Shown here piece after piece: positions 5,489-56,412 of a stretch of DNA of 64,000 nucleotides. Positions within the stretch are counted from its first letter, which is position 1, and every line of letters begins with the position of its first letter. Under the pieces are notes generated by a model that did no database searches, had not been told where the DNA came from, and saw only the letters and a program-made list of their open reading frames with translations. The position numbers were made by a program, and so were the translations under genes. Origin of the DNA: an uncultured bacterium. Its GTDB lineage: Bacteria; Omnitrophota; Omnitrophia; Omnitrophales; Abzuiibacteriaceae. The stretch is from NCBI GenBank assembly GCA_964387845.1, contig CAYLXA010000002.1, positions 64,001 through 128,000 of the forward strand, given 5' to 3'.

Positions 5489-5561
5489 GCCCATGTAGCT
5501 CAGCTGGTAGAGCGGCGCTTTCGTAAAGCGTAGGTCGTCAGTTCAATCCTGACCGTGGGCT
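5489..5561 (+). tRNA. tRNA-Thr (anticodon CGU)
   Basis: Folds by hand into a cloverleaf. The acceptor stem is GCCCATG/CGTGGGC. The D-arm is GCTC-AGCTGGTA-GAGC. The anticodon stem is GCGCT/AGCGT with loop TTCGTAA (anticodon CGT). The T-arm is GTCAG-TTCAATC-CTGAC, and the discriminator base is T. Confidence 0.85.
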
Positions 5562-34291: not shown

Positions 34292-35884
34292 ATGAGCAAC
34301 GAATCGAGCATTGATTTATTTGAATTTTATTTGCAGCGGTTTTTTATGATCGCGTATGCTCTTTTTATTTGCGTTCATTTTTATGTCATTGCTGCAAATC
34401 AATTCATAGGATCATCGGATTCCGCGATTTACGCATCAACCTTACGGAATTGGGTAGAGGGAAGGGGTTTTACGGTCGATTTTATCTCCCATTTTTTTAG
34501 AGCGTATCCTCAAATTAATCACGCGCAAGATCAATACCCCGTGTTTCCCGTTATTTTGTCCGCTCCGTTTTATATCTTGTTTGGAAAATCTGTTTTTGGA
34601 GCAAAGATTTTAAATCTGTTGTTCTACCACGGTATTTTATGGATTGGTTATTGGTTTTGGCTTAAGTGGTTTAACAAAAAAGTTGCGATTCTCTCGGCTT
34701 TGATCTACATGACCTGCGTCCCGGCTTGGCAATTATCGATTTACTGCATGGCTGATTTGGGGTCCTGCTTCTTCATTTTTTTATTCATTGCAACGCTCGT
34801 GAAATTGCGTGTTATGGAAGGTTTGCAGCGCTCTGATTTATTGACGCTTATTCTGTGCGGGCTGTTCGGTGGAATGGTTGTTTTATATAAAACAGTGAAC
34901 CATATCGTCTTGTTTGCACTCCTATCATTCGTTCTTTTCCAGCCTCACGGGAAACTGTCGGAACGATTTCGCGCAGTGTTTGCAATCGGCTTGATCGCAT
35001 TGTTGATCAACCTCCCGGATTACATTCGGAACTGGCAGCTTTTTGGCTCTCCAATTTTTTCTTACGCAAGCTCTATTGCAGTTGCTGAGAAAATGGATCC
35101 CGGGCCCAACGGCGCCTATCATATTTACTTTGATAAACCTTTATCGTTTCTGACCTTGATAACCGAATTCGGTTGGGCGCACCTCATAAAACTAACCTTG
35201 TATAATTTTGAACAGTTTTTTCTTGGTTTATTTATCAAAGGCAATTTATTGCATCCGCTGGTAATGATTGCAGGTATTTGGGGAATTGCGGCAGGGTGTT
35301 TGCGGGCGCGGCTCCGATGGCTGCTTGGGTGGTGGTTTTTTGTATTTGCGGTATTGATGTGTTTTGTGCAGAGTTATCAAGTTCGTTATTACGTTGCTTT
35401 TGCACCTTTTCTAGCCGGTGGCAGTGCTTATTTGATAGTTGAGCGAGTTCTGCCGGTATTTAAAAATATACGAGGCAAGTTGCTAGTGGTTGGAATTATC
35501 GGTATAATTTCTTCATTTTCATTAGTCTTGGGGATGCTTCCCGAGGTCTTTGGCGAAAAAAAGGCCGGGTTTCTGCGTTTGGCGAGCTGGATTGCGGCCA
35601 ACACTCCTCCGGAGGCAGTCTTGATTACAAGAAGCCCTTGGGAGGTTGGCTTTCACACAAAGCGCGGAACAGTGATTACCCCAAAAGGGAGTAAGAGAGA
35701 ATTTGATCAAATAATAGAAAGATATGGCGCTTCTTATTTTGTCATTGATGGGTACCGGGAGACTTATCATCAGATTCAAGATTTAAGACCGCTTTATTCC
35801 GGAGTTGAAATGCCTGGTTTTCAGAAAGTATTTGAGCAAAAGTGGCGTTCAAAGGAGGCCTATGTTTATAAAATCATCCATTAA
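34292..35884 (+). CDS. polytopic membrane protein, GT-C-like (PMT_2/ArnT-like family) candidate
   Basis: 530 aa. Many TM segments, a periplasmic-loop-sized region after TM1 and a ~90-aa soluble C-terminal domain. No catalytic motif is confidently identified. Confidence 0.4.
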   Translation: MSNESSIDLFEFYLQRFFMIAYALFICVHFYVIAANQFIGSSDSAIYASTLRNWVEGRGFTVDFISHFFRAYPQINHAQDQYPVFPVILSAPFYILFGKSVFGAKILNLLFYHGILWIGYWFWLKWFNKKVAILSALIYMTCVPAWQLSIYCMADLGSCFFIFLFIATLVKLRVMEGLQRSDLLTLILCGLFGGMVVLYKTVNHIVLFALLSFVLFQPHGKLSERFRAVFAIGLIALLINLPDYIRNWQLFGSPIFSYASSIAVAEKMDPGPNGAYHIYFDKPLSFLTLITEFGWAHLIKLTLYNFEQFFLGLFIKGNLLHPLVMIAGIWGIAAGCLRARLRWLLGWWFFVFAVLMCFVQSYQVRYYVAFAPFLAGGSAYLIVERVLPVFKNIRGKLLVVGIIGIISSFSLVLGMLPEVFGEKKAGFLRLASWIAANTPPEAVLITRSPWEVGFHTKRGTVITPKGSKREFDQIIERYGASYFVIDGYRETYHQIQDLRPLYSGVEMPGFQKVFEQKWRSKEAYVYKIIH

Positions 35885-36607: not shown

Positions 36608-38560
36608 ATGAATACACTTTTAATTCTTGATGATTTGGCGGAGCTTCTATCATCTAAAAATAAAACCATACAAAAGCTGCTTTCGGCGTACTTGCAGCAT
36701 TTGGCGCGTTCAGCCGATGGCGCGGCTGAGGAGTTGTTGCGTGACGGTGATACGGTTTTTGCGGCAGGTCCGCAGGAGGTTTTAAGCCGTGTCACAGGAC
36801 CTTGCGAAAAGCTGGATTACGGAATCTGGTTCGATACAATCCCGTTTGCGCGCGGCGGGGAGATTGCAGGAAAGATAGTGGAGCAGATTCGGGTTTCCGA
36901 AGAGCTTAAGTCGATCTGCCCGTTTCTGTATCGGAACACGATTTCAATTCCAAAAATCGCCGCGATGCGGCTGATCATTACATTCTGCTACCACGCGGTC
37001 AATAATTATCTTTTACTTGAAAGCATCATTCGAAAAAAGCAAATTCAGAAAATCGTGGTTTTGGGGTCTGGTGCTGAAATTGAAATTTTAGGAAAAGAAT
37101 TGTCAAAGAAGCATCGCTTACAGTTTCAAGTCATGCGCCCTCATGATGTAATTTTAAAATTAAAAGTTAGGTTTGCTGATTATCTTTTTTATCGAGACAG
37201 AAAACTTCATGCCCTTCAATCGTTTCAAAACTGCGACAGCTTGCCTAAGCAAGAAATCAAGAAGAGGAACCATAAAAAATTGATCGCCATGCTTCCGGCG
37301 CATTCCCTTCATTTTAAAATCATGGACTCGCTCATGGGCGCGCTTCGCCAATCGCGCAATTATGAGCCATGCGTGCTGCTTCAAGATGCTTTTGAGCCGT
37401 ATCAAGGGGCATTGAAAAATTCGGGAATAGCATTCCGATTTCTTCATGATTTTTCGAGCAGGGAACTTATGGGAAAATTTCAAAATTATTTTAAAAATCT
37501 CAAATCTGCTTGGAAGAAATTAAGAAATTCGGATACATTTAAATCTGCGTTTGACTGCGATGGGCTCAATTGGTTCGATATTCTGAGAGTCGAAATGGAG
37601 TGGTTTTTTAAATTCAGCTATGCTGAAACGCTGGTCTTGCAGGAGCGCTTACGAAAAGCGATGGCAGATGTGCCGATAGATTCCGTTTTTACTTTTAGCG
37701 ATTCACGGTTTTTTGAAGCGGGAGGTGCGGCAATTGCACGGGAGATGAAAAAGCCCTCGTTTTTATATTCTCCTAATTTTTTATACGATACAGACGGTAT
37801 TAACGACTACGATACGGCGGAATTTGTTTTGACCGTGGGCAATCAAATGAAAGATTATATTGCGGCGCGCGGCAAGGTGAATCCGAGTCAAATTTTCACC
37901 GTTGGCGATATCCGTTTTGACGGAAGCGAAAAATGGCGAAGCAGCGATCAGGCCGAGAAAACTCGTGTACAGCTTCAAATTCCATCGGACAAAAAGGTAT
38001 TTATTCTAACCTCGTTTTACACTTGCTTTGGCTATAATGCATACGACAAGAAACGCTTCTTTGAAATGATTCGAGATGCCGCCAAAGCCAATCCGGACGT
38101 TGCGATTGTGATCAAGGCACATCCGAACGAGAGCGAAGAAGTTCTGCGGCAATTTGTTAAAAGTTTGGGCATGAGTGATTTTCCGTTAACAAAAACAATG
38201 CCGCTTTATTCGCTGTTTGGAATATCCAGCGGGCTTATTTCGTTGACGTCTCTTGCGGCAGTCGAAGCCATGGCATTGGATTTACCGGTTATCATTGCGA
38301 CGCTGCCGGATCGAAATTACGATTACTATATCCCATTTCGCCAATCCGATTCGGCAGCGTATGCTGCAAGCGCCGAAGAGCTCTCCTTGATTTTTAGAAA
38401 ATTAATTGATGAATCGAACTACAAAAAAAATTTGTTGGAACGGCATCGACAATTTGTTTCGCGTTATGTGGACCGAGGCGGGCAGAGCGCCGGCCAACGG
38501 GTTATTCAGGTTCTAGATAAAATTGTGAATTCCGAACGTGAGAATTTGGGGCAGCTCTAA
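36608..38560 (+). CDS. two-domain protein: N-terminal domain of unknown function plus a C-terminal GT-B-like 'HP-motif' transferase domain (KpsS/TagF/sialyltransferase-like). Candidate nonulosonic acid transferase.
   Basis: The C-terminal ~250 aa contain '…KKVFILTSFYTCFG…' and 'VAIVIKAHPNESEE', followed by 'LISLTSLAAVEAMALDLPVI'. A K-x-HP motif of this kind is shared by PF05159/TagF/GT38/GT52 enzymes. The gene ends 5 nt before the CMP-NulO synthetase gene. Confidence 0.45.
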   Translation: MNTLLILDDLAELLSSKNKTIQKLLSAYLQHLARSADGAAEELLRDGDTVFAAGPQEVLSRVTGPCEKLDYGIWFDTIPFARGGEIAGKIVEQIRVSEELKSICPFLYRNTISIPKIAAMRLIITFCYHAVNNYLLLESIIRKKQIQKIVVLGSGAEIEILGKELSKKHRLQFQVMRPHDVILKLKVRFADYLFYRDRKLHALQSFQNCDSLPKQEIKKRNHKKLIAMLPAHSLHFKIMDSLMGALRQSRNYEPCVLLQDAFEPYQGALKNSGIAFRFLHDFSSRELMGKFQNYFKNLKSAWKKLRNSDTFKSAFDCDGLNWFDILRVEMEWFFKFSYAETLVLQERLRKAMADVPIDSVFTFSDSRFFEAGGAAIAREMKKPSFLYSPNFLYDTDGINDYDTAEFVLTVGNQMKDYIAARGKVNPSQIFTVGDIRFDGSEKWRSSDQAEKTRVQLQIPSDKKVFILTSFYTCFGYNAYDKKRFFEMIRDAAKANPDVAIVIKAHPNESEEVLRQFVKSLGMSDFPLTKTMPLYSLFGISSGLISLTSLAAVEAMALDLPVIIATLPDRNYDYYIPFRQSDSAAYAASAEELSLIFRKLIDESNYKKNLLERHRQFVSRYVDRGGQSAGQRVIQVLDKIVNSERENLGQL

Positions 38561-38564
38561 TCAC

Positions 38565-39281
38565 ATGGCAAAAAAAATATTACTAACCATTGCTGCCCGC
38601 GGCGGTTCAAAAGGTGTTAAGAATAAAAACATTCGAATGCTTCACGGAAAGCCGTTGATTGCCCACACAATTCATGCTGCGTTGAAATGGGGAAAGGCAG
38701 ATCGTGTAGTGGTCAGCACTGACTCGGCTGCAATTGCACGAGCAGCGCGGAAATATGGCGCTGAAGTCCCGTTCTTGCGGCCCGCTGCGTTTGCTCGGGA
38801 TTCTTCCCCAAAATGGCATGCATTAAAGCATGTATTGGAACAATCTGAGAAATTCTTCAACGAACGCTATGATTTGGTGATTGACCTGGATGTAACGGCG
38901 CCAATTCGCAGCGGGCAGGATATTGATGTGTGTCTTCAAAAGTTTTTACGCTTCAAACCCAAAACGCTTTTCAGCGTAACGCTCGCCCATAAGAATCCGT
39001 ATTTTAATATGGTGGAAGAAACAAAAAATGGTCGCGTGCGGGTCTCAAAGAAGTTGAGGACAAGCATTGTCCGGCGTCAGGATGCGCCCAAGGTTTACGC
39101 AATCAATGGTTCGATTTATGTTTATTCGCGTAATTACCTGCTCAAGTCTAAAAATCCTATTGCGACGAGCGATGATTCAATTATTCACGTGATGGATGAA
39201 CTAAGCGGTATCGACATAGACCGTGAAATCGATTTCAAATTCGTTGAATTCTTAATTCGCGAAGGCATGGTAAAGTTTTGA
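38565..39281 (+). CDS. acylneuraminate cytidylyltransferase family (CMP-nonulosonic acid synthetase, LegF/NeuA/PseF-like)
   Basis: 'ILLTIAARGGSKGVKNKNIRMLHGKPLIAHTI' is the hallmark N-terminus of CMP-NeuAc/CMP-Leg synthetases. 239 aa. Confidence 0.85.
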   Translation: MAKKILLTIAARGGSKGVKNKNIRMLHGKPLIAHTIHAALKWGKADRVVVSTDSAAIARAARKYGAEVPFLRPAAFARDSSPKWHALKHVLEQSEKFFNERYDLVIDLDVTAPIRSGQDIDVCLQKFLRFKPKTLFSVTLAHKNPYFNMVEETKNGRVRVSKKLRTSIVRRQDAPKVYAINGSIYVYSRNYLLKSKNPIATSDDSIIHVMDELSGIDIDREIDFKFVEFLIREGMVKF

Positions 39282-40150
39282 AAACCACTCGCATTATTCC
39301 TCGCCTCGATATTAAAGGCCCTAACCTGGTGAAGGGAATTCACCTTGAGGGCTTACGTGTTCTTGGTAAGCCTGAAAAATTTGCTCGCTATTACTACGAA
39401 ACAGGTGCTGACGAACTTCTCTACATGGATGTTGTTGCTAGTCTGTATGGGCGAAATAGTTTGCTCGATATTATTTCCAAAACTTCAAAAGAGATTTTTA
39501 TTCCGTTAACGGTTGGCGGCGGCCTCAGATCTTTGGTTGATATGCAGGCTGTTCTTCATGCGGGTGCTGATAAGGTCGCGATCAATACTGCCGCAACGCA
39601 AAACCCGGAGATTATTCGCGAAGCCTCTAAACGCTTCGGATCTTCAACCATTGTCGTCTCGATTGAGGCCATTAAGCAACCCGACGGCACTTATCATGCT
39701 TTCATCGACAACGGACGTCAGGAAACCGGCTTGGATGTGTTCGATTGGGTTCAAAAAGTTGTCGAGTTGGGTGCTGGTGAAATTTTGCTGACCTCTGTCA
39801 ATCAAGAGGGAACGGGAAAGGGTTACGATCTTGACCTCATCAAAAAAGTTTCCGAAATGATTCCGATTCCCGTGATTGCTTGCGGCGGAGCGAAAAATAA
39901 ATCCGATGTGGCGAAAGTAATTATGGAAGGATGTGCGGATGCTGTGAGCGCTGCATCGATCTTTCATTATCATTATATTCGTGAAAACAGGTCAACCTCA
40001 GATTTTGAAACCGAAGGCAACGTTGAATTCTTAAAAAGCGGCAAGGGATTCAGCCAGTTTGACACAGTGACAGTTCGCGATGTTAAAAAGCATTTAACAG
40101 ATTTAGGGATCGAATGTCGTTATGAAAAAGGTTTGGTGGAACATGGCTAA
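39278..40150 (+). CDS. imidazole glycerol phosphate synthase cyclase subunit HisF paralogue (WbuZ-like, glycan amidotransfer)
   Basis: 'IIPRLDIKG…VKG' and a (beta/alpha)8 HisF signature 'ILLTSVNQEGTGKGYD'. Located in a glycan locus, not in a his operon. Confidence 0.8.
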   Translation: MKTTRIIPRLDIKGPNLVKGIHLEGLRVLGKPEKFARYYYETGADELLYMDVVASLYGRNSLLDIISKTSKEIFIPLTVGGGLRSLVDMQAVLHAGADKVAINTAATQNPEIIREASKRFGSSTIVVSIEAIKQPDGTYHAFIDNGRQETGLDVFDWVQKVVELGAGEILLTSVNQEGTGKGYDLDLIKKVSEMIPIPVIACGGAKNKSDVAKVIMEGCADAVSAASIFHYHYIRENRSTSDFETEGNVEFLKSGKGFSQFDTVTVRDVKKHLTDLGIECRYEKGLVEHG

Positions 40151-40817
40151 ATCCAAACCGCGAGTCGCTATTGTCAATTACGGCATGGGAAATCTGTTCA
40201 GCGTGCAGCAAACCTGTGCTCATGTTGGCCTTGAAGCCGTGGTTACAAACCAAAAAAGGGATCTCCAAACGGCTGACGGAATCATTTTGCCTGGCGTTGG
40301 GGCATTTGGAGATGCTATGGACAACCTAAACCGTTTAGATATTACAGAAACCCTCCAGAAGGCCATTTTATCTGAAAAAAAGCCTTTTCTAGGGGTCTGC
40401 CTGGGCCTGCAATTACTTATGGAGGAAAGTGAGGAATTTGGGTATCATAGAGGCCTTGGTGTAGTCAAGGGGAAGGTAATTCGCTTTGGCGATCAGATAA
40501 AGGGCAGGGATGGCAGGGCAGCGAAAGTCCCTCAAGTCGGTTGGAATCAGATATATCCTACGCCAAGCGGAAGTGAATGGAGCCAGTCGCTTTTGTCCGG
40601 AGTTTCAGAGGGCGATTTCATGTATTTTGTGCATTCATACCACATTGAGCCAGAAGATAGAGGCGTTCGTTTGTCAATGACGCGCTATGGTAATTTTGAA
40701 TTTTGCTCCAGTGTACAGAAGGGAAATATCTTTGGCTGTCAGTTTCATCCGGAACGAAGCGGTGCCAAGGGCGTTACGGTTTACCAAAATTTTTTGAAAT
40801 TATTTTCTAAATCTTAG
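40143..40817 (+). CDS. glutamine amidotransferase HisH paralogue (WbuY-like)
   Basis: Class I GATase triad context 'GVCLGLQLL' (Cys) and 'FHPE' (His/Glu). ATG 40143 overlaps the hisF-like stop (ATGGCTAA). Confidence 0.8.
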   Translation: MAKSKPRVAIVNYGMGNLFSVQQTCAHVGLEAVVTNQKRDLQTADGIILPGVGAFGDAMDNLNRLDITETLQKAILSEKKPFLGVCLGLQLLMEESEEFGYHRGLGVVKGKVIRFGDQIKGRDGRAAKVPQVGWNQIYPTPSGSEWSQSLLSGVSEGDFMYFVHSYHIEPEDRGVRLSMTRYGNFEFCSSVQKGNIFGCQFHPERSGAKGVTVYQNFLKLFSKS

Positions 40818-42499: not shown

Positions 42500-43723
42500 A
42501 TGACGCAATCTGAAACTCAAAATAAATTTAAAACCAAGTACGGTTTGCCGTCAGAAGTAATTTTCTGCAAGCGTTGCGTCATGTCAAACCAGCGGCCCGC
42601 TTCAAGTAAAGAATTCAAGCATACCAAATCTCAAAAACACACAACGCTTAATATTCCAAACGATGGTATCTGCGATGCGTGCCGTTACGCGGATAAAAAA
42701 GAAGAAATCAATTGGAAAAGCCGAGAAGCCGAACTTTTGAAACTGCTCGACCGCCACCGCAAAACGGACGGAACTTACGATTGCATTGTTCCTGGAAGCG
42801 GCGGAAAAGACAGTGTTTATGCAGCGCACTTGCTCAAATACAAATACGGTATGCATCCTTTGACGGTCACTTGGCCGCCAATTCTTTACACCGATATTGG
42901 TTACGCGAATTTTAGAAATTGGCTCTACAAAGGCGGTTTCGATAACATTTCGTTTAATTACAACGCCAAAGTTCATGCACTATTAACAAGACTCGCCATC
43001 GAAAACCTTCTTCATCCTTTTCAACCTTTTATTCTTGGACAAAAAAACCTCGCGCCCAAGCTCGCTTTAAAATATGAAGTGCCTTTGATTTTCTACGGTG
43101 AAAGTGAAGCAGAATATGGAAATCCGCTTGCAGAGACCGCAACCTCGCTCCGCGATAAATCTTATTTCACGATGGAAAATCTTTCCGATATTCATTTGGG
43201 CGGCGTAAGCGTGAAAGAACTTCAGGAAAAATACAAACTCACAATCAACGACATTATGACTTATTTGCCGCCGACGGCATCCGAGGTCGCCAAAATGAAT
43301 ATGGAAGTTCATTACCTTGGTTATTATTTAAAATGGACACCGCAGGAAGCCTATTATTACTCGGTTGAAAATGTGGGTTTTCAGGCAAATCCATTCCGCA
43401 CCGAAGGCACTTACAGCAAATACAACAGTTTGGATGATAAAATAGACGGCTTCCACTATTACACCACTTTCATTAAATTTGGCTTAGGTCGCGCAAGTTA
43501 CGATGCATCACAAGAAATTCGCAACAAACATTTGACGCGGGAAGAAGGTATAGCGCTTGTCCGCAAGTTTGACGGGGAGTTTCCTCAAAAATATTTTCAG
43601 GAAATCATGGACTATATCGGCATGAAGCCCGATCATTTTCTGGATCTTTGCGACCAATTCCGGTCTCCGCATTTATGGAAAAAAGAAAATGGGAAGTGGA
43701 TCTTGCGCTATCCGGTCAATTAA
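42500..43723 (+). CDS. N-acetyl sugar amidotransferase (WbuX/PseA family, PP-loop ATP pyrophosphatase)
   Basis: PP-loop 'IVPGSGGKDSVYAAHLL'. About 400 aa, as in WbuX/PseA. Adjacent HisH/HisF paralogues complete the known acetimidoyl-forming trio. Confidence 0.8.
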   Translation: MTQSETQNKFKTKYGLPSEVIFCKRCVMSNQRPASSKEFKHTKSQKHTTLNIPNDGICDACRYADKKEEINWKSREAELLKLLDRHRKTDGTYDCIVPGSGGKDSVYAAHLLKYKYGMHPLTVTWPPILYTDIGYANFRNWLYKGGFDNISFNYNAKVHALLTRLAIENLLHPFQPFILGQKNLAPKLALKYEVPLIFYGESEAEYGNPLAETATSLRDKSYFTMENLSDIHLGGVSVKELQEKYKLTINDIMTYLPPTASEVAKMNMEVHYLGYYLKWTPQEAYYYSVENVGFQANPFRTEGTYSKYNSLDDKIDGFHYYTTFIKFGLGRASYDASQEIRNKHLTREEGIALVRKFDGEFPQKYFQEIMDYIGMKPDHFLDLCDQFRSPHLWKKENGKWILRYPVN

Positions 43724-47368: not shown

Positions 47369-48379
47369 ATGAATCTTAAAGGCAAAAGAGTTCTGGTTAC
47401 CGGAGCCGATGGTTTTATCGGTTCTCATTTGACCGAAGCGCTGGTGAGGCGTGGATGTAACGTACGCGCGTTCGTATTTTACAATTCGTTCAATTCATGG
47501 GGCTGGCTGGATGAGTCGCCAAAGGATATCAGAAAGTCTTTGGACGTGGTTGCTGGAGATGTCCGCGATCCGCACGGTGTCCGAGAAGCCGTAAAGGGAT
47601 GTGACGTTGTCATGCACCTGGCAGCGCTTATTTCAATTCCGTTTTCGTATCATTCGCCGGATGCTTTTGTTGATACAAACATAAAGGGGACTCTCAACGT
47701 GTTGCAGGCATCTCGAGATTCAAAAGTAAGCAAAATTATTCATACCTCCACGAGCGAAGTTTACGGAACCGCGCAGTTTGTGCCCATTACGGAAGAGCAC
47801 CCATTGCAGGGCCAATCACCCTATTCGGCCTCAAAAATTGGGGCTGATCAGATGGCTACGGCTTTTCACTCAGCGTTCCAAACACCGGTTTGTATTTTTC
47901 GGCCGTTCAATACATATGGTCCAAGGCAGTCAGCGCGCGCGGTTATTCCTTCTATTATTATTCAAATCGCAACGGGAAAGAGTGAGATCAAGCTTGGATC
48001 TGTCCATCCAACTCGAGATTTTACCTATGTATCCGACACGGTCGAAGGTTTTATCAAAGCCGCGGAATCAGAAAAGTCGGTTGGCGAGGTGATTAACGGG
48101 GGTAGTAATTTTGAGATCTCAATTTCGGATACCGTAAAATTGATTAGCAAAATCTTAAACCGAAAAATTGCGGTCATAAGCGATAATCAAAGAATTCGCC
48201 CGAAAGCAAGCGAGGTGGAGCGATTGTGGGCTGACAATAAGAAGGCAAAAAAACTACTTAACTGGAAGCCTGCGCATAGCGGTTTAGAAGGTTTTGAAAA
48301 GGGGCTAAGAAAAACCGTGGACTGGATCTCGCAAGCGGATATTTTAAAGCGATACAAAGAAGAGATTTATAACATTTAA
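47369..48379 (+). CDS. NAD-dependent nucleotide-sugar 4,6-dehydratase/epimerase (LegB-like candidate)
   Basis: 'VLVTGADGFIGSHLTEAL' Rossmann fold, plus TSE and YxxxK ('YSASKIGADQ'). It is the first gene of the Leg-type sub-cluster. Confidence 0.7.
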   Translation: MNLKGKRVLVTGADGFIGSHLTEALVRRGCNVRAFVFYNSFNSWGWLDESPKDIRKSLDVVAGDVRDPHGVREAVKGCDVVMHLAALISIPFSYHSPDAFVDTNIKGTLNVLQASRDSKVSKIIHTSTSEVYGTAQFVPITEEHPLQGQSPYSASKIGADQMATAFHSAFQTPVCIFRPFNTYGPRQSARAVIPSIIIQIATGKSEIKLGSVHPTRDFTYVSDTVEGFIKAAESEKSVGEVINGGSNFEISISDTVKLISKILNRKIAVISDNQRIRPKASEVERLWADNKKAKKLLNWKPAHSGLEGFEKGLRKTVDWISQADILKRYKEEIYNI

Positions 48380-48381
48380 CA

Positions 48382-49557
48382 ATGAAGCGAATAAAATCCA
48401 ACATAGACGCCACAAGTGTTCTGAAGGCTGTTAGGAAGTGCTTGCCCGGGGACAGTCGCCCCATCCAACTTCACGAGCCCTGGTTTGCCGGCAACGAGCA
48501 GAAGTATGTCAGTGCGTGCATTAAGAGCGGGATTGTTTCATCGATCGGGCCTTATGTTGAACAGTTTGAGAAACAATTGATCCGATTGACAGGCTCAAAA
48601 TTTGCAATTGCCACGATCAACGGAACAGCTGGGCTTCATACGGCACTCCGAATGGCCGGAGTAGAGGCAAATGATGAGGTTTTAGTGCCGTCATTGTCAT
48701 TCGTTGCAACATCAAATGCGATCGCGTATTGCGGCGCTATTCCTCATTTTATTGACAGTGAGATGCGGGCGCTTGGCGTTGATCCGCACAAGCTTCAGGA
48801 TTATTTGGTAAAAATATCCAAACGGCGAAATAGCGGCTTCATCAATAAAACAACAGGCCGGAGAATAAGAGCGGCGGTTGTGGTGCATACATTCGGCCAC
48901 CCGGCGGATCTTGACGCTATCCAGGCAGTTTGCAAAAAATTTAAACTTCCACTAATTGAAGATGCTGCAGAATCGATCGGATCCTATTACAAAGGGAAGC
49001 ACACCGGTACAATCGGAGACTTTGGTGTTTTAAGCTTTAACGGCAACAAAACAATCACGTCAGGCGGCGGAGGCGCGATTTTAGTACAGAATCAAAAACT
49101 GGCAAAACATCTCCGGCACATTACAACCACCGCTAAAATACCTCATGCTTGGCGTTATTATCATGATGAAATCGGATATAATTATCGGCTTCCCAATCTA
49201 AACGCTGCGCTTGGCTGTGCGCAATTGGAGTCGCTGCCGATGTTTATCAAGCGCAAACGGGCCTTAGCCAAACGTTACGAGAAGGCTTTCTCCCATATTA
49301 ATGGAGTTAGTTTTATTAAGGAACCTCCTTTTGCAAAAAGCAACTACTGGCTAAATGCTGTCAGGCTGGAAGGTGTTGGATTGCGGGAAAGAGATCGGTT
49401 TTTAACGCTTATGCACACGCACAACATTAAAACAAGGCCGGTGTGGACACTGACGCATCGTCTTCCTATGTATCGAAATTGCCCGCGAATGGATATGTCC
49501 GTATCAGAGAAAATTGAAAAAGAAACTATTAACCTGCCCAGCAGCCCAGCGTTATGA
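48382..49557 (+). CDS. DegT/DnrJ/EryC1/StrS-family PLP-dependent sugar aminotransferase (LegC/PglE-like)
   Basis: 'LHEPWFAGNEQKYVSACIKSG' N-terminus. PLP-lysine region 'SFNGNKTITSGGGGAIL'. Confidence 0.85.
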   Translation: MKRIKSNIDATSVLKAVRKCLPGDSRPIQLHEPWFAGNEQKYVSACIKSGIVSSIGPYVEQFEKQLIRLTGSKFAIATINGTAGLHTALRMAGVEANDEVLVPSLSFVATSNAIAYCGAIPHFIDSEMRALGVDPHKLQDYLVKISKRRNSGFINKTTGRRIRAAVVVHTFGHPADLDAIQAVCKKFKLPLIEDAAESIGSYYKGKHTGTIGDFGVLSFNGNKTITSGGGGAILVQNQKLAKHLRHITTTAKIPHAWRYYHDEIGYNYRLPNLNAALGCAQLESLPMFIKRKRALAKRYEKAFSHINGVSFIKEPPFAKSNYWLNAVRLEGVGLRERDRFLTLMHTHNIKTRPVWTLTHRLPMYRNCPRMDMSVSEKIEKETINLPSSPAL

Positions 49558-51737
49558 AGCGAAGAATTTGTGTAGTTACTAGTTCGCGCGCCGATTTTGG
49601 TCATCTGCAGTGGGTCATGACCTATCTGAAAAAAGATCCGAGAGTTCGCTTGCAAGTTGTGGTGACCGGCTCACACTTATCTCGCGCGCATGGAACCACC
49701 TTGCGCGAAATTCAGGACGCGGGAATTTCTGAATCTGCTCGGATTCCAATCATTGCAAAAGGGGATTCTGTTGTTGCGATAACGCAAGCGGCTGGAATGG
49801 CATTGAGCAGATTTGCAAAGGTCTTTGACAGGCTCAAACCCGAATTGCTGCTGGTTGTGGGAGATCGTTATGAAATTCATTCGGCCGTAACGGCGGCGCT
49901 TCTCGCTAAAATTCCGGTTGCACATATTGCCGGTGGCGACATTACGGAAGGGGCATTCGATGACGCGTTGCGGCACAGTATCACCAAAATGGCTCATTTG
50001 CACTTTGTGACAAATGCCGTGTCGGCGAAACGAATTCGGCACATGGGAGAAAACCCTTCGCATATTTTTAACGTTGGAAATCCTGCGCTTGACCATGTAA
50101 CGAAATCAAAATTATTCACTAAAAACGAAATTGAGGAGAAGCTTGCTTTCAAAATGCGCTCACGCAATATCTTGATTACGTTTCATCCGGTTACGCTGGA
50201 CACCGAACCATCTGACCGGCAATTTAAACAGTTGCTGAGCTCGCTGAATCGGTTGGGAGACGAATATGGCCTTATTTTTACTAGGCCCAACGCGGATCCG
50301 GCAGGACAAAAGATATCTAAATTGATCGATCATTTTGTCAAAACGCATTCAAACGCTATTGTAAAAGCCTCGCTAGGTCATTTGTTATACTTAAGCATCA
50401 TGAATGAAGTTGATTTGGTTGTCGGAAATTCATCAAGCGGGATTTATGAGGCGCCAACATTTAAAATTCCCACAGTTAACATCGGAAACCGGCAAAAAGG
50501 CCGCTTGCGAGCGGCTTCTGTGATTGATTGCGCGCCGAGCAGGGCGGCAATTAGCCGAGCAATTCGGTCAGCTCTAGCAAAGGATTGCTCGCAGGTTGAA
50601 AATCCTTACGGACGGGGAAATAGTTCCGAGCAAATTTATAAGATTATTCGCTCTGTCCAGAACCCAAAAACACTAATTCAAAAGAAATTTTATGATGCCG
50701 GCGTGCCCACTAAAACTGGGCCGGTTTATGTGATCGCCGAAGCGGGGGTGAATCATGGCGGCTCGCTGAAACTTGCAAAAAAACTGATCGACGCAGCTTC
50801 GCAAGCCGGCGCTAATGCGGTCAAGTTTCAAACTTTTGATTCGGATATGCTGGTAACGCGACAAGCTAAAAAAGCAAAATACCAGCAAGACACAACCGGC
50901 AAAAATGGGTCTCAATATGAAATGCTCAAAAAATTAGAACTCAGCCAGAAAGATCATTTTGCGCTGAAAGCTCACTGCAAAAAAAGAAAAATTGATTTTT
51001 TATCGACCCCTTTTGATTTAAAAAGCCTTGATTTCTTAATCAACAATCTGCAGGTCCGGAAAATTAAAATATCTTCAGGCGATATTACCAACGGGCCGCT
51101 ACTGTTGAAAGCTGCGGAATCAAAACTTCCGATTATTTTATCAACCGGAATGTCAACGCTTGACGAAATTGAAGCTGCCGTAAGATTGATCGAGAAAGGA
51201 TATCGATCCAGCGCCTCTCTTTTAAAATCAAACTTAAAACTGCTTCATTGTACAAGCGAATATCCGGCCTCATTTTCTGATATGAATTTGTTATCGATCG
51301 ATTTTTTAAGAAATTATTTTCAATTGGATGCCGGGCTGTCAGATCATTCGAGCGGGATAGCAGCTGCAATTGCAGCCGTAGGGCGCGGCGCATCCATTAT
51401 TGAAAAACACATTACTTTGAATAAAAGCATGGCAGGCCCCGATCACCGCGCATCGCTTGATCCGAATGAGTTTCGAGAACTGGTTCGATCAATTCGCCAA
51501 GTCGAAGAAGCTATGGGATCCTACGTAAAAAGGCCGGCAGCGTCAGAATTAAAAAACCGAAGCGCAGCCAGAAAGAGCATCGTCGCTTCCAAGCCGATTA
51601 AACGCGGAGAAAGGCTGACCCGTCACAATCTGGCGCTGAAGCGTCCCGGTGTCGGGATCAGCCCCATGAATCTTTCGGAAGTCATAGGACGACTATCAAC
51701 CAAAAATTATAAAAAAGACGATATCATTGTTATCTAA
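49554..51737 (+). CDS. fused hydrolysing UDP/GDP-HexNAc 2-epimerase (NeuC/LegG-like, N-terminal half) and nonulosonic acid synthase (NeuB/LegI-like, C-terminal half)
   Basis: Residues 1-~375 read 'VVTSSRADFGHL…VVGDRYEIHSA…HIAGGD…RHSITKMAHLHF', which align with E. coli NeuC. Residues ~385-727 read 'VYVIAEAGVNHGGSLKLAKKLIDAASQAGANAVKFQTF', the NeuB TIM barrel, and end in a C-terminal SAF domain. Confidence 0.85.
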   Translation: MKRRICVVTSSRADFGHLQWVMTYLKKDPRVRLQVVVTGSHLSRAHGTTLREIQDAGISESARIPIIAKGDSVVAITQAAGMALSRFAKVFDRLKPELLLVVGDRYEIHSAVTAALLAKIPVAHIAGGDITEGAFDDALRHSITKMAHLHFVTNAVSAKRIRHMGENPSHIFNVGNPALDHVTKSKLFTKNEIEEKLAFKMRSRNILITFHPVTLDTEPSDRQFKQLLSSLNRLGDEYGLIFTRPNADPAGQKISKLIDHFVKTHSNAIVKASLGHLLYLSIMNEVDLVVGNSSSGIYEAPTFKIPTVNIGNRQKGRLRAASVIDCAPSRAAISRAIRSALAKDCSQVENPYGRGNSSEQIYKIIRSVQNPKTLIQKKFYDAGVPTKTGPVYVIAEAGVNHGGSLKLAKKLIDAASQAGANAVKFQTFDSDMLVTRQAKKAKYQQDTTGKNGSQYEMLKKLELSQKDHFALKAHCKKRKIDFLSTPFDLKSLDFLINNLQVRKIKISSGDITNGPLLLKAAESKLPIILSTGMSTLDEIEAAVRLIEKGYRSSASLLKSNLKLLHCTSEYPASFSDMNLLSIDFLRNYFQLDAGLSDHSSGIAAAIAAVGRGASIIEKHITLNKSMAGPDHRASLDPNEFRELVRSIRQVEEAMGSYVKRPAASELKNRSAARKSIVASKPIKRGERLTRHNLALKRPGVGISPMNLSEVIGRLSTKNYKKDDIIVI

Positions 51738-51746
51738 AGACGCGTC

Positions 51747-52340
51747 ATGAGAGAAGAGATTGATAAACCCATTATTGTGATTGGGGCTGGAGGGCATGCC
51801 AAAGTCCTGATCGACGCACTGCGGTTAATGGGATGCCAGGTGTTGGGCGCAACCGAAAAAAAACCGGAAATAATTGATCAGGCAAAACTTCCGGTGAAGC
51901 TTTTGGGAAACGACGATGAAATATTAAAGCATTCACCCGACAGCATACTGCTCGTTAACGGTGTAGGCCAAGTTGGGGTAGGGCCAAGTCGCTCTCAGAT
52001 ATTTGATAGATATAAATCAAAAGGCTATCGGTTTGCAATCATCCAACATCCCCGAGCCGTTGTCGCGGCTGATGTTGAATTGCATGAGGGCGCACAAATT
52101 ATGGCTGGTGCAATCATTCAAACTGCTTCCAAAATTGGCTGTAACACCATTGTGAATACAGGCGCATCGATTGACCATGATTGCCAAATTGAAAGCCATG
52201 TCCATATTGCGCCTGGAGCCATTTTGTGCGGGATGGTTGAAGTGGGAGAGGGATCTCATATTGGCGTTGGTGCTATTCTCATTAACAATACAAAAGTGCC
52301 GCGAAACAGTTTTATTAAGTCCGGTACTCTGGTGAAGTAA
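51747..52340 (+). CDS. hexapeptide-repeat sugar N-acetyltransferase (NeuD/PglD/LegH family)
   Basis: 'IIVIGAGGHAKVLIDAL' Rossmann-like N-domain followed by a left-handed beta-helix. Confidence 0.8.
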   Translation: MREEIDKPIIVIGAGGHAKVLIDALRLMGCQVLGATEKKPEIIDQAKLPVKLLGNDDEILKHSPDSILLVNGVGQVGVGPSRSQIFDRYKSKGYRFAIIQHPRAVVAADVELHEGAQIMAGAIIQTASKIGCNTIVNTGASIDHDCQIESHVHIAPGAILCGMVEVGEGSHIGVGAILINNTKVPRNSFIKSGTLVK

Positions 52341-52350
52341 GGAGTTTGTT

Positions 52351-53397
52351 ATGGAAATTTGGAAAAAAACGCTCGTATCAAAGTTAACGCCGATCAAAGA
52401 AGTGATTAAAGTAATCGATGCGGGATCTTTGCAAATTGCTTTGGTCGTTGATGAAAATTATAAGCTTTTAGGAACCGTTACCGACGGTGATGTTCGCCGC
52501 GGCATTTTAAAAAACATATCCATGAATGATCCCGTGCACAAAATTATGCAGTCGAAACCAGTCATTGCAAAACTGGGCGAGGAGCGAGAAAAAGTTTTGG
52601 TACGCATGAAAGAAAAGCAGATCAATCAAATTCCATATCTTGATCAAGCGGGGCGTGTCAAAGGACTTGAAGTTATCCATGATTTGCTTAACGGATCCGC
52701 AAAAGATAATCCTGTATTATTGATGGTGGGCGGCCTGGGAAGCCGGCTGCAACCAATCACAAACGATCTTCCGAAGCCGCTCATTAAAGTCGGTGGCAAG
52801 CCGATTTTGGAACGCATTTTAGAGGATTTGATTGAATACGGCTTCCGGAAGTTTTACTTTTCCGTATTTTATAAATCCGAAATGATTCAAGAATATTTCG
52901 GTGATGGCAGCCGCTGGGATGTGGAAATTCGGTATATTCGCGAGCAAAAGAGAATGGGCACTGCCGGCGCCTTGAGCCTTCTTCCTGAAAAGCCTTCGGC
53001 ACCAATTTTAATTATGAACGGAGATTTGGTTACAAAAGTTAATTTTCAGCATCTTTTTGATTTTCATCAGCAGCAATCCGGCGATTTGACCGTGTGCGTC
53101 CGTGAGTATGATTTTCAAGTGCCTTACGGCGTTATTAAAATGAACGGTCATCTTATTTCAGGCATCGACGAAAAACCGGTGCATAAGTTTTTTGTAAACG
53201 CCGGAATTTATTTGATGGAGCCTGCGCTTTTGCGAAACATATCCAAAAACCGTTTTTTAGACATGACCCAGCTGATTGAAAAATTGAAGTCCAAAAAGAA
53301 AATTCTCGCATTTCCGATCCGTGAATATTGGCTCGATATCGGCCGGCACGACGACTTAAAGCGTGCAACCGAAGAAATCGAGTCGTTGTTTAAATAA
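52351..53397 (+). CDS. CBS-pair plus sugar-phosphate nucleotidyltransferase (PtmE-like, GDP-HexNAc forming candidate)
   Basis: Two N-terminal CBS motifs. Then 'LMVGGLGSRLQPITNDLPKPLIKVGGKPILERIL', the G-x-G-T/S-R-L NTase signature. Confidence 0.8.
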   Translation: MEIWKKTLVSKLTPIKEVIKVIDAGSLQIALVVDENYKLLGTVTDGDVRRGILKNISMNDPVHKIMQSKPVIAKLGEEREKVLVRMKEKQINQIPYLDQAGRVKGLEVIHDLLNGSAKDNPVLLMVGGLGSRLQPITNDLPKPLIKVGGKPILERILEDLIEYGFRKFYFSVFYKSEMIQEYFGDGSRWDVEIRYIREQKRMGTAGALSLLPEKPSAPILIMNGDLVTKVNFQHLFDFHQQQSGDLTVCVREYDFQVPYGVIKMNGHLISGIDEKPVHKFFVNAGIYLMEPALLRNISKNRFLDMTQLIEKLKSKKKILAFPIREYWLDIGRHDDLKRATEEIESLFK

Positions 53398-53420: not shown

Positions 53421-54224
53421 ATGAACTCATCAACCGTACCCCAAATCAGCATTTTACTTTGTGTTCACAACGGTGAACGAACAGTTGAGCAAGCGATCAA
53501 CAGTCTTCTTGCTCAGACGTTTAAGGATTTTGAGCTCATCGTGATCAATGATGGGTCAACCGATTCTACTCTCGCTCAGTTAGAGAAATTTCAAGACCCA
53601 AGAATCTTCATTCAAAGCATCCCCCGGCGCGGACTCACGAAAGCGCTCAATGTGGGGCTTGCTCAATGCCGCGGTGAATTCATTGCGCGCGTCGATGCTG
53701 ATGATGTTGCGCTGCCTAATCGGCTTGAGCGCCAGGCTGTATTCTTAAATAAGCATCGAAGCGTGGGCGTGATTGGGACCGGGTATGAAATTTTAACTGA
53801 AAACGGTTCGCGAAAACGGGCGACCGTCCCTCTCCTGGAAACCGATTATGAAATCAAGCAAGCTCTTCCGAAATTTAACCCGTTTCACCACGGGTCAGTC
53901 ATGATTCGCCGGCAAATTTTGATCGAAGAGGGCGGCTATGATGAAAATTTTAAACTGGCTCAGGATTATGAACTGTGGCTCAGGCTATCAGGACGTTGCC
54001 AAATGGCTAATATCGGGGAAGTTCTGATGGTGCGCAGAGAGGGCCGAGAAACACTCAAAAAAGAACGCGAACAAAATTGGTACGGAATCAAGGCCAGATT
54101 GAAAGCAATTCAGCGAGGGAATTTAAGTTTTTGGAACGTGATCTACATTCTTCGCCCATTTTTAGTTGTGCTAACACCGGACTGGATAAAATCCGTTATT
54201 CGAAAATTGATCCGAAATGCCTAA
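53421..54224 (+). CDS. glycosyltransferase family 2
   Basis: 'ISILLCVHNGERTVEQAINSLLAQTFKDFELIVINDGSTDST' and a 'DADD' DxD motif. Confidence 0.8.
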   Translation: MNSSTVPQISILLCVHNGERTVEQAINSLLAQTFKDFELIVINDGSTDSTLAQLEKFQDPRIFIQSIPRRGLTKALNVGLAQCRGEFIARVDADDVALPNRLERQAVFLNKHRSVGVIGTGYEILTENGSRKRATVPLLETDYEIKQALPKFNPFHHGSVMIRRQILIEEGGYDENFKLAQDYELWLRLSGRCQMANIGEVLMVRREGRETLKKEREQNWYGIKARLKAIQRGNLSFWNVIYILRPFLVVLTPDWIKSVIRKLIRNA

Positions 54225-56412
54225 AATTAAAATCCTATTCATTGATTCTCGCGGAGACTTTGGCGGGGGATCGAACCATCTGCTGTCCATTTTGGAATCT
54301 CTGGATCCGAATAAATTCGACGCATTTGTTGCAGCGCCGTCCGGTCAAGGCAATTCGGAGAAATACCGGAAACTTTGCCGTGCATTCTGTGATATTCCAT
54401 TCCGGAAATTTTCACTCGATGCTTTTCGTGATTTAGTTGAGTTTGCCGAAACCCACCAAGTTCATTTTGTCCATTCCCACGGCCGCGGGGCTGGCATCTA
54501 TAGCCGCTTTATTTTTTGGAAAACCAAAATTCCGGCCATTCATACTTTTCACGGAATTTCTTATGGATTCTTCGGAGCATTCATCGACCGCTTTTTAAAA
54601 AAATGGACAGCCAGGTTTATCCATGTTTCTGATTCTGAGCGGGAAGCCGCGGCTAATCTTGGGGTTTCCGATCCGCGCAGGGCAGTGACCATCTACAACG
54701 GGATCGACTACAGGTGTTTTCAATCGGGTAAAAGCAGAAAAGATGCAAAAGCATCGCTTGGGTTAAGTTTAGATCATTTTGTCATTGGATGCGTGGCTAG
54801 ATTTGATGCTTGCAAGCGCCACCAAGATTTAATCGAAGCCTTGGCTTTATTGACTACTCGCTATCCCAATCTGCGTTTAGTGCTGGCTGGTGACGGCGAA
54901 ACGCGTATAAAGATCGAGCAATTGGCAAATGAATGTGGTGTCTTGGGTAAAGTTTTATTTTTGGGAGAACAAAAAAATCCTCAAATCGTTTATGCGGCAT
55001 CTGATGTATTCGTGCTCGCATCCGAATTTGAGGGCCTTCCTTTAGCGCCTCTGGAGGCGATGGCAGCGGGTTGTGCGGTTGTGTTATCGAATGTGCGCGG
55101 CAACCGGGATGTGGTTCAGGATGAAAAAGACGGCCTGCTATTCGAAGCAAAAAATCCGGAAGCGCTTGCTGCTGCCATTGCGCGGTTAATCGGCAGCCAG
55201 GAGCTGCAGTCAAGACTTATCGAATCGGCCCACAGGACCGTGATTGAGCGATTTTCCATCGATCGCATGCGTGCACAAATTTATGCTTTTTATGAAACCC
55301 TTGTTCCGGTTCCGAAATTCCGGAAAGCCGCGTTGACGCACGACTGGCTTTTTCATATGCGCGGAGGGGAAAAAGTTTTGGAGTCCATCGGAGAACTTTT
55401 TCCGCTTGCGCCCATCTACACGCTTTTTCTCGATCAGAAAAAACTGTCTGAATCCATTAACCGGCACCAGATAATTGCCTCGTGGCTGAACCAGATCCCT
55501 CTCATTGCCGGGTTTTACCGGTATCTACTCCCCCTATTTCCGTTGGTGATGAAGCAATTTGATATCAAAGATCATCTTTTAATCGTTAGCAGCAATCACT
55601 GCGCTGCTAAATCTATCTCGAAGGGGAGGCGCGCGCTACACATTTGCTATTGTCACGCACCAATGCGCTACGCATGGGGTTTTGAATCAGAATATTTTGG
55701 CCGGTTTCCGTTTTTTCTCCGCAGTCTGATCAGGACAGTTCTGAGCTGGCTTCGTTATCGCGATCTCGGATCTAATCCCGGCGTCGATCACTTTATTGCA
55801 AACTCTCAGAATATTAGAAAACGCATCAACCAATACTATGCAAGAGAAGCTGATGTGATTTACCCGCCGATTCAGAAGCGGTTGAAACAGTGTGAGCCTG
55901 CCCAATCGAGCGAGTACTTGATTGTCTCGGCGCTCGTTCCTTACAAACGGATCGATATAGCCGTGCAGGCATTCAACGAATTACAGCTTCCGCTAACAAT
56001 CATCGGGTCCGGCCCCTTATTGCCATCTCTGCAAAAGCAAGCGAAATCGAATATCCGGTTTTTGGGTTGGCAGCCTGATCATGAAGTCGCAAAATATTAT
56101 GCCAGCTGCAAAGCGCTCATTTTTCCGACCGAAGAAGACTTTGGCATGGTTCCGGTTGAGGCAATGATGTACGGAAAGCCGGTGATTGCGTTTGCGTGCG
56201 GCGGCGCGCTTGAAACCGTGATTCCCGGAAAAACAGGACTGCTTTTTGATGCACAAACACCGGAAGCGCTAACCAACGCCGTAAAACAGTTTTCCATTAA
56301 TCAGTTTGACTCTAAAGCCATTACAGCCTATGCTCAGAAATTTAGCGCCGAGCACTTTAATGATGCCGTTATAAAACTTTTGTCGGAATTTACCAATGGT
56401 CAAGCAAACTAA
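54217..56412 (+). CDS. tandem di-domain glycosyltransferase (two GT4 modules fused)
   Basis: Module 1 has 'ASEFEGLPLAPLEAMAAGCAVVLSNVRGNRDVVQDEKDGLLF'. Module 2 starts at 'ALTHDWLFHMRGGEKV' and ends with 'PTEEDFGMVPVEAMMYGKPVIAFACGGALETVIPGKTGLLF'. Confidence 0.75.
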   Translation: MPKIKILFIDSRGDFGGGSNHLLSILESLDPNKFDAFVAAPSGQGNSEKYRKLCRAFCDIPFRKFSLDAFRDLVEFAETHQVHFVHSHGRGAGIYSRFIFWKTKIPAIHTFHGISYGFFGAFIDRFLKKWTARFIHVSDSEREAAANLGVSDPRRAVTIYNGIDYRCFQSGKSRKDAKASLGLSLDHFVIGCVARFDACKRHQDLIEALALLTTRYPNLRLVLAGDGETRIKIEQLANECGVLGKVLFLGEQKNPQIVYAASDVFVLASEFEGLPLAPLEAMAAGCAVVLSNVRGNRDVVQDEKDGLLFEAKNPEALAAAIARLIGSQELQSRLIESAHRTVIERFSIDRMRAQIYAFYETLVPVPKFRKAALTHDWLFHMRGGEKVLESIGELFPLAPIYTLFLDQKKLSESINRHQIIASWLNQIPLIAGFYRYLLPLFPLVMKQFDIKDHLLIVSSNHCAAKSISKGRRALHICYCHAPMRYAWGFESEYFGRFPFFLRSLIRTVLSWLRYRDLGSNPGVDHFIANSQNIRKRINQYYAREADVIYPPIQKRLKQCEPAQSSEYLIVSALVPYKRIDIAVQAFNELQLPLTIIGSGPLLPSLQKQAKSNIRFLGWQPDHEVAKYYASCKALIFPTEEDFGMVPVEAMMYGKPVIAFACGGALETVIPGKTGLLFDAQTPEALTNAVKQFSINQFDSKAITAYAQKFSAEHFNDAVIKLLSEFTNGQAN

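Follow-up and report, generated by a model that had tools for sequence, protein, structure and literature searches.

The question raised by the locus described here is whether LegG and LegI, the two consecutive legionaminic-acid enzymes that release a free sugar by hydrolysing 2-epimerization (NeuC-type) and then condense it into a nonulosonic acid (NeuB-type), can be carried by one single natural protein. The locus lies in a stretch of 64,000 nucleotides, called here the window, from an uncultured bacterium of the Omnitrophota (family Abzuiibacteriaceae; GenBank assembly GCA_964387845.1, contig CAYLXA010000002.1, positions 64,001 to 128,000 of the forward strand). The gene in question is an uninterrupted open reading frame (ORF) at window positions 49554-51737 on the + strand, coding for 727 amino acids (aa) from an ATG start with zero in-frame stops. 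We consider it quite likely that LegG and LegI are genuinely fused in this gene and that the fusion is inherited; the gene product is most likely a bifunctional LegG~LegI enzyme, as predicted from family assignments and operon context. The gene and its parts are the following:

49554..51737, + strand: the fused legG~legI gene, predicted to encode a hydrolysing nucleoside diphosphate (NDP)-diacetylbacillosamine 2-epimerase joined to a legionaminic acid synthase, 727 aa (from the ORF, Pfam, and NCBIfam)
49554..50678, + strand: the LegG/NeuC half, residues 1-375, with a two-Rossmann epimerase fold (from TIGR03568, the structures 5ZLR/5XVS, Foldseek, and invariant residues)
50679..50723, + strand: the junction, residues 376-390, where the natural C-terminal tail of NeuC runs into the N-terminus of NeuB without an added linker domain
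50724..51527, + strand: the TIM-barrel domain of LegI/NeuB, residues 391-658 (from PF03102 at 411-658, and TIGR03569)
51573..51728, + strand: the SAF (antifreeze-like) C-terminal domain of the synthase, residues 674-725 (from PF08666, E value 2.5e-9)

The reading frame is continuous throughout the junction DNA (50580-50820), and Pfam recognizes in the 727-aa protein the domains Epimerase_2 (residues 25-366, E value 2e-83), NeuB (411-658, E value 2e-90), and SAF (674-725), in that order. The NCBIfam model NeuC_NnaA (TIGR03568) is matched by residues 3-365 over model positions 1-365 of 365 with 434 bits (cutoff 236), and NeuB_NnaB (TIGR03569) by residues 391-725 over positions 1-329 of 329 with 461 bits (cutoff 400). 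The non-hydrolysing WecB model reaches 97 bits on the N half, below its cutoff of 210, and the PseI model 272 bits on the C half, below its cutoff of 340. Given that both passing models are matched end to end, the NeuC and NeuB halves are both complete, far beyond chance; NCBIfam itself holds no dedicated model for a NeuC-NeuB fusion. The first-pass annotation, made from the DNA without database searches, had claimed a single polypeptide containing a full NeuC/LegG followed by a full NeuB/LegI with its SAF domain, and this is borne out by the Pfam, NCBIfam, and structure matches; the sequence blocks that it pointed out are located in the translation at residues 101-107 (VVGDRYE), 124-129 (HIAGGD), and 140-151 (RHSITKMAHLHF), besides the linker ending in IIRSVQNPKTLIQKKFYDAGVPTKTGP.

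The catalytic residues of both halves are in place as well. The nearest solved relative of the N half is the hydrolysing GDP/UDP-diacetylbacillosamine (diNAcBac) 2-epimerase 5ZLR/5XVS (GDP and UDP being guanosine and uridine diphosphate), with an E value of 4e-76, as against 1e-48 for the sialic-acid-type epimerase domain 4ZHT. The signature residues GDRxE, H-x-x-GG(D/E), and DDxxRH and the two-Rossmann (GT-B-like) fold are present in this half, with functional roles that we take to be those of the GNE and NeuC enzymes. An alignment of 37 fused proteins shows twelve invariant epimerase residues (G103, D104, R105, E107, H124, G127, G128, D136, R140, K145, H150, and H211), and all of these except G103 and K145 are listed as agreeing with 5ZLR too. 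In the C half, residues E25, K53, K129, H215, E234, H236, and R314 of Neisseria meningitidis NeuB correspond to E396, K424, K505, H598, E617, H619, and R697, all of them invariant among the 37 aligned fused proteins; presumably, they include the metal-binding histidines and the catalytic and substrate-binding residues of the synthase.

An AlphaFold2 model of the 727-aa monomer, built with the alignment of 37 fused proteins, has a mean predicted local distance difference test score (pLDDT) of 90.7 and a predicted template modelling score (pTM) of 0.65. By Foldseek, its N half superposes on 5XVS (TMt 0.95, root-mean-square deviation 2.0) and its C half on the NeuB/PseI structures 1XUU and 8H2C (TMt 0.84-0.90), and no solved chain covering both halves was found by this search (TMq <=0.49). 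Secondary structure is absent at about residues 375-391, the mean pLDDT falls to 63 in the block 381-390, and the junctions of the fused homologues conserve K377 and F379 before entering a variable stretch. The model thus suggests two well-folded domains joined by a low-confidence linker, and since the domains exceed a pLDDT of 90 but pTM is 0.65, their relative placement is uncertain.

Is this protein alone in its architecture? A search in NCBI, JGI, ENA, and Logan gave about 43 full-length fused homologues in the same Epimerase_2-NeuB-SAF order, at 42-55% identity. The three that were checked in their DNA context are each a single gene in the slot LegB-LegC-[fusion]-LegH-PtmE, usually with LegF next, and fused genes from both of the major clades described below occupy this operon position. 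In the window, the fusion lies within a long single-strand polysaccharide locus in the same order, LegB-LegC-[fusion]-LegH-PtmE, with the following neighbours:

38538..39281, + strand: a candidate cytidine monophosphate (CMP)-nonulosonate synthetase, LegF/NeuA-like (PF02348 CTP_transf_3, E value 3e-19)
47369..48379, + strand: legB, NAD-dependent NDP-N-acetylglucosamine 4,6-dehydratase (TIGR04180, 522 bits, cutoff 475)
48382..49557, + strand: legC, aminotransferase (TIGR04181, 524 bits, cutoff 420)
51747..52340, + strand: legH-type N-acetyltransferase of the NeuD/PglB/VioB family (TIGR03570, 181 bits, cutoff 160.8; PglD_N and Hexapep)
52351..53397, + strand: a PtmE-like protein with CBS domains and a sugar-1-phosphate nucleotidyltransferase domain, putatively supplying the NDP-sugar precursor (PF00571 and PF00483)

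The legC stop codon overlaps the start codon of the fusion as ATGA at 49554-49557 (sequence ...gcgttATGa). The position of the PtmE-like gene is common to fused and unfused Leg operons, and the PtmE label itself is given from architecture and synteny alone. The LegF candidate stands about 8 kb upstream of the operon, a gene that in most other loci comes after PtmE. A further neuB or neuC was not found anywhere in the 64 kb, which leaves the fusion as the cluster's sole copy of both steps.

The first-pass annotation also held that the two activities are usually carried by separate polypeptides, and that a NeuC-NeuB fusion is not, to its knowledge, a commonly described architecture. The first statement agrees with a profile scan in which each species was represented by one genome. 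The scan gave at least 596 related stretches and 80 loci from it serve as references, so that fused genes of cultured genomes may have been missed. Stop-to-stop ORF analysis found a single ORF holding both halves in none of these 80 loci: neuC is directly followed by neuB in 40, neuB by neuC in 21, and the two genes lie apart in 9. Matches spanning residues 2-725 had read as fusions in cultured bacteria such as Cohnella, Geomonas, and Pseudomonas laurentiana, and the ORF analysis shows two adjacent genes in all of these cases. A single-sequence scan of species-representative genomes found no close relative of the window protein. More exhaustively, an HMMER search of 1.84 billion representatives at 50% identity returned 7,860 proteins at E <=1e-30, among which continuous NeuC->NeuB fusions form 4 clusters only (P0011, P0123, P0036, and P0124), together with two junction-spanning fragments. 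The same search found about 9 fusions of the reverse order, NeuB->NeuC; P0028, P0044, P0049, P0085, and P0094 have this order. The NeuC->NeuB architecture is therefore rare yet recurrent. As to the second statement, natural fusions of NeuC with NeuB or of LegG with LegI are not described in the full-text literature searched, which leaves subscription journals mostly outside, but the architecture is not unique, given that dozens of database copies exist, some of which IMG automatically names as the bifunctional 'N-acetylneuraminate synthase/UDP-hydrolysing UDP-GlcNAc 2-epimerase'. The strings 'NeuB-NeuC' found in a 3'-sialyllactose paper refer to operon cassettes, not to fusions.

Several other joined enzymes came to light. 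An apparent triple fusion of CMP-nonulosonate synthetase (NeuA), NeuB, and NeuC, covering three pathway steps, is encoded in a metagenome-assembled genome of Nanoarchaeota (P0052, 982 aa, MDP3698722.1). In the HMMER search, other pairs of neighbours are joined in P0186 (LegG-LegH, that is, the epimerase with a PglD-type acetyltransferase), in P0173 and P0222 (LegH-LegI), and in P0197 and P0226 (LegF-LegI, a cytidylyltransferase with NeuB), and P0194 joins the epimerase LegG to a GFO/IDH/MocA oxidoreductase.

How the fusion may have arisen can be followed in the unfused loci, which share the gene order of the fused ones, LegB-LegC-G-I-LegH-PtmE-LegF. Between the epimerase domain and the synthase domain lie 45 nucleotides in the fusion versus a median of 49 nucleotides in the 40 unfused neuC->neuB pairs, and this matching domain spacing indicates that the linker is the native NeuC tail running into the native NeuB N-terminus. 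In 14 of these 40 pairs, the start codon of neuB and the TGA stop codon of neuC share an ATGA, an overlap that implies translational coupling of both genes, and 10 of the 40 have neuC and neuB in one reading frame. In six of these ten, L002, L003, L006, L007 (Pseudomonas laurentiana), L020 (Paenibacillus sp. S150), and L065, a single stop codon alone separates neuC from neuB, at about positions 11140-11190 of the locus (about 10000 in L006), and these six are one point mutation or read-through event short of the fused state. The ancestor would accordingly have been the widespread operon LegB-LegC-LegG-LegI-LegH-PtmE-LegF, with legG and legI abutting or overlapping, and the stop codon would have been lost through a point change where the genes were in frame, or through a small or one-nucleotide indel where they overlapped as ATGA, with no linker gained in either case.

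Neighbour-joining trees of each half were calculated from p-distances, without support values. In the tree of the NeuC half, the fused proteins fall into two pure clades, one of 16 members that includes the window protein and another of 15, and a few fused singletons are placed among unfused neuC->neuB lineages, with about 8 state changes by parsimony. Two pure fused clades of this size indicate that the fusion was kept through deep divergence, and the trees support at least two origins, each followed by long retention, as far as such crude trees can tell.

In terms of function, the N half would hydrolyse and 2-epimerize NDP-2,4-diacetamido-2,4,6-trideoxy-glucose to free 2,4-diacetamido-2,4,6-trideoxy-D-mannose, the nucleotide being probably GDP because of the PtmE-like neighbour. 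The C half would condense this sugar with phosphoenolpyruvate at its metal site to yield legionaminic acid, and the LegF-like enzyme encoded upstream would turn legionaminic acid into the CMP-activated form that the surrounding polysaccharide locus uses. The Leg gene context, together with an N half that is nearer to 5ZLR/5XVS than to 4ZHT, points to legionaminic acid and not to N-acetylneuraminic acid (Neu5Ac), and a LegI-type specificity for 2,4-diacetamido-2,4,6-trideoxy-mannose versus N-acetylmannosamine (ManNAc) is suggested solely by the operon context. The most likely consequence of the fusion itself would be a fixed 1:1 ratio of both enzymes that also holds them close to each other.

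Several points weigh against this reading of a genuine LegG~LegI fusion and are gathered here. The two assemblies that contain the identical 727-aa protein, namely the NCBI contig (275 kb) and the Logan assembly of SRR15237813 (72.9 kb), may stem from the same reads; the trees are crude; GTG codons stand in frame shortly before the NeuB domain, at residues 384 and 393; the NeuB_NnaB model passed by the C half does not separate LegI from Neu5Ac synthases; the top NCBIfam model of the LegF candidate is PseF (131 bits, below its cutoff of 205.7); and the identity of the substrate (Leg versus Neu, GDP versus UDP) is drawn from gene context and family scores alone. One alternative would be that two separate genes were joined artificially by a missed stop codon or base near 50,680-50,720, a read-through that the first-pass annotation had already raised, and it draws strength from related genomes, whose fused and unfused states differ by one base, and from database 'fusions' with junk-like junctions suggestive of frameshift errors (P0047, P0056, and P0080). 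In the window gene, however, the junction is clean and aligns with those of 36 other fused proteins, the nearest relatives in the 16-member clade are fused throughout, and the same ORF came from two assemblers; the homologue P0017 is encoded identically, as one fused gene, on contigs of about 140 kb from three different and independent metagenome samples. Conserved fused homologues and repeated independent assemblies thus make an assembly or sequencing artefact very unlikely, to the point that we regard its probability as practically negligible and the read-through as excluded. It could also be argued that the long ORF is real and that the synthase half is nonetheless made separately, in addition or even mainly, from an internal start codon such as the GTG codons just mentioned. 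The Shine-Dalgarno core is present in only 7 of 39 gene starts, and therefore its absence at the junction is uninformative; nevertheless, ATG opens 38 of the 39 genes examined in the window, an internal start is not marked by any feature, and no start codon is conserved at the junction across the fused homologues, so we hold separate synthesis of the synthase half to be improbable.

With regard to the product, a pathway leading to Neu5Ac, in which the protein would be a strict NeuC-NeuB rather than LegG-LegI, is in keeping with the names of the two models that both halves pass, NeuC_NnaA and NeuB_NnaB, and with the label N-acetylneuraminate synthase that NCBI and IMG give to homologues. Nevertheless, the fusion is flanked by genes that pass the LegB and LegC models and is followed by LegH-type and PtmE-like genes, none of which is needed for Neu5Ac, and the N half resembles 5ZLR, a diNAcBac epimerase, far more closely than 4ZHT, a UDP-GlcNAc epimerase, so a Neu5Ac pathway appears highly improbable. 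A different matter is what the fusion does for the LegG~LegI enzyme. The first-pass annotation proposed that it channels an unstable intermediate. The pathway intermediate, 2,4-diacetamido-2,4,6-trideoxy-D-mannose, is a free neutral sugar and is not known to be unstable; the proposal is not sustained, given that the linker is the native NeuC tail, variable and of low pLDDT, and that the inter-domain geometry is uncertain. In its strongest form, the idea would be that of a dedicated channelling machine, with the domains docked in a defined geometry, perhaps as part of a higher oligomer, the intermediate passed from site to site, and the kinetic gain selected. The persistence of the fusion in two clades that have diverged to about 45-55% identity, the joining of this enzyme pair in both orders and of other neighbouring pairs too, and a free neutral intermediate that, from what is known of the pathway, could diffuse away would all be in keeping with such a machine. 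Set against this, the linker offers only variable sequence of low pLDDT, no fixed interface is evident in a model with a pTM of 0.65 despite domain pLDDT above 90, fusions in both orders sit badly with one required geometry, and a strong general advantage is hard to square with the rarity of the architecture (none of the 80 reference loci kept, only 4 clusters in the NeuC->NeuB order); dedicated channelling is in our view unlikely. A related and equally doubtful possibility is that the fused chain works as a defined oligomer, in which the NeuB-type domain-swapped dimer core would carry the NeuC-type epimerase modules and the intermediate would be handed over directly, an arrangement that would have been reached convergently several times, in both orders and in the Nanoarchaeota triple fusion with the CMP-synthetase.

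The remainder of the polysaccharide locus encodes methyltransferases, a 2OG-Fe oxygenase, an ABC transporter, several glycosyltransferases, a Wzy_C protein, and a Bac_transf initiating transferase. After the LegF-like gene come a HisF-like and a HisH-like gene, the three together spanning window positions 38538-40817 (+ strand). Such an imidazole-glycerol-phosphate-synthase-like pair beside a CMP-synthetase gene recurs in many Leg operons, in our reference set in L007, L009, L013, L014, L037, L044, L052, L056, L067, L072, L078, L080, and L082, and it may serve in a modification of the sugar N-acyl group, for example, amidine formation. Four ORFs of the locus on the + strand, at 28853-30499, 34292-35884, 36608-38560, and 42500-43723 (548, 530, 650, and 407 aa, respectively), have no Pfam match at E <=1e-5, and in L082, a 398-aa gene likewise without a Pfam match follows the HisH-like gene at a comparable position. 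Another tandem or fused enzyme is encoded at 54217-56412 (+ strand), a protein of 731 aa that contains two complete GT4 modules, with Glycos_transf_1 and Glyco_transf_4 each matched twice.

The window also carries housekeeping genes for MiaA, HflX, sigma-54, and an LptD-like protein, which indicate a Gram-negative bacterium. The sigma-54 protein (RpoN) has, among its top hits that bear a name, only Candidatus Omnitrophica/Omnitrophota, at 48-58% identity, in line with an Omnitrophota source. A deoxyhypusine-synthase-like gene of the homospermidine/bis-guanidino-aza-nonane synthase family lies at 3411-4532 (+ strand), with every model below its curated cutoff. Two neighbouring GGDEF diguanylate cyclase genes (9208-12095, + strand) stand upstream of the LptD-like outer-membrane gene (12775-15114) and of the polysaccharide locus. 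The sole Rfam match in the window is a tRNA gene at 5489-5561 (+ strand), which adjoins the sigma-54 gene on the opposite strand, and the Rfam scan of the window gave no RNA match near the fusion gene.

Both enzymes and their pathway are well known, and therefore what the window gene offers is no new biochemistry, but a rare and recurrent domain-fusion variant. It is a clean natural Rosetta-stone case and an independent confirmation that LegG and LegI act consecutively, and it illustrates the fusion of overlapping genes under translational coupling by means of one small mutation. As a ready-made bifunctional catalyst, the protein could make it simpler to synthesize legionaminic acid and its derivatives enzymatically, compounds of use as stable mimics of sialic acid, and nature provides in it a test of whether two reaction steps linked by a freely diffusing intermediate go faster through tethering alone. 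If the reading of an oligomer with direct handover were true, the protein would be a natural one-protein module leading from NDP-sugar to nonulosonic acid. The locus is also further evidence that this uncultured Omnitrophota lineage can probably decorate its surface with a legionaminic-acid-type sugar.

Compared with known systems, the closest are the stand-alone LegG (5ZLR/5XVS) and LegI/NeuB (1XUU and 8H2C) encoded by adjacent Leg genes, which share with the window protein the same folds, catalytic residues, neighbours, and order. The difference is the intervening stop codon, which is missing in the window gene and leaves one 727-aa chain, whereas all 80 reference loci examined have two ORFs. 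LegG and LegI are likewise separate in the archaeal and bacterial Leg pathways described in PMC6137143. Among fusions already described, the nearest are animal GNE and a Leptospira NeuB fusion. GNE (UDP-GlcNAc 2-epimerase/ManNAc kinase, 4ZHT), whose fusion is described in PMC3438082, also has an N-terminal hydrolysing 2-epimerase joined to the user of its free-sugar product; it differs in that its partner is a sugar kinase, its pathway is that of Neu5Ac, and its epimerase is distant (E value 1e-48 versus 4e-76 for LegG). PMC3438082 also presents the NeuB of Leptospira interrogans, with a C-terminal phosphatase-like domain, as a fusion that served as a clue to the pathway logic. As described there, this protein is alike in joining a nonulosonate synthase to another enzyme of the same pathway, but the enzyme joined to it at the C-terminus is a phosphatase of a later step, whereas the window protein has the upstream epimerase at its N-terminus. 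Finally, the uncharacterised NeuB->NeuC, NeuA-NeuB-NeuC, LegG-LegH, LegH-LegI, and LegF-LegI fusions are likewise Rosetta-stone fusions of nonulosonate operon neighbours, and they differ from the window protein in domain order or partner and have an origin independent of its clade.

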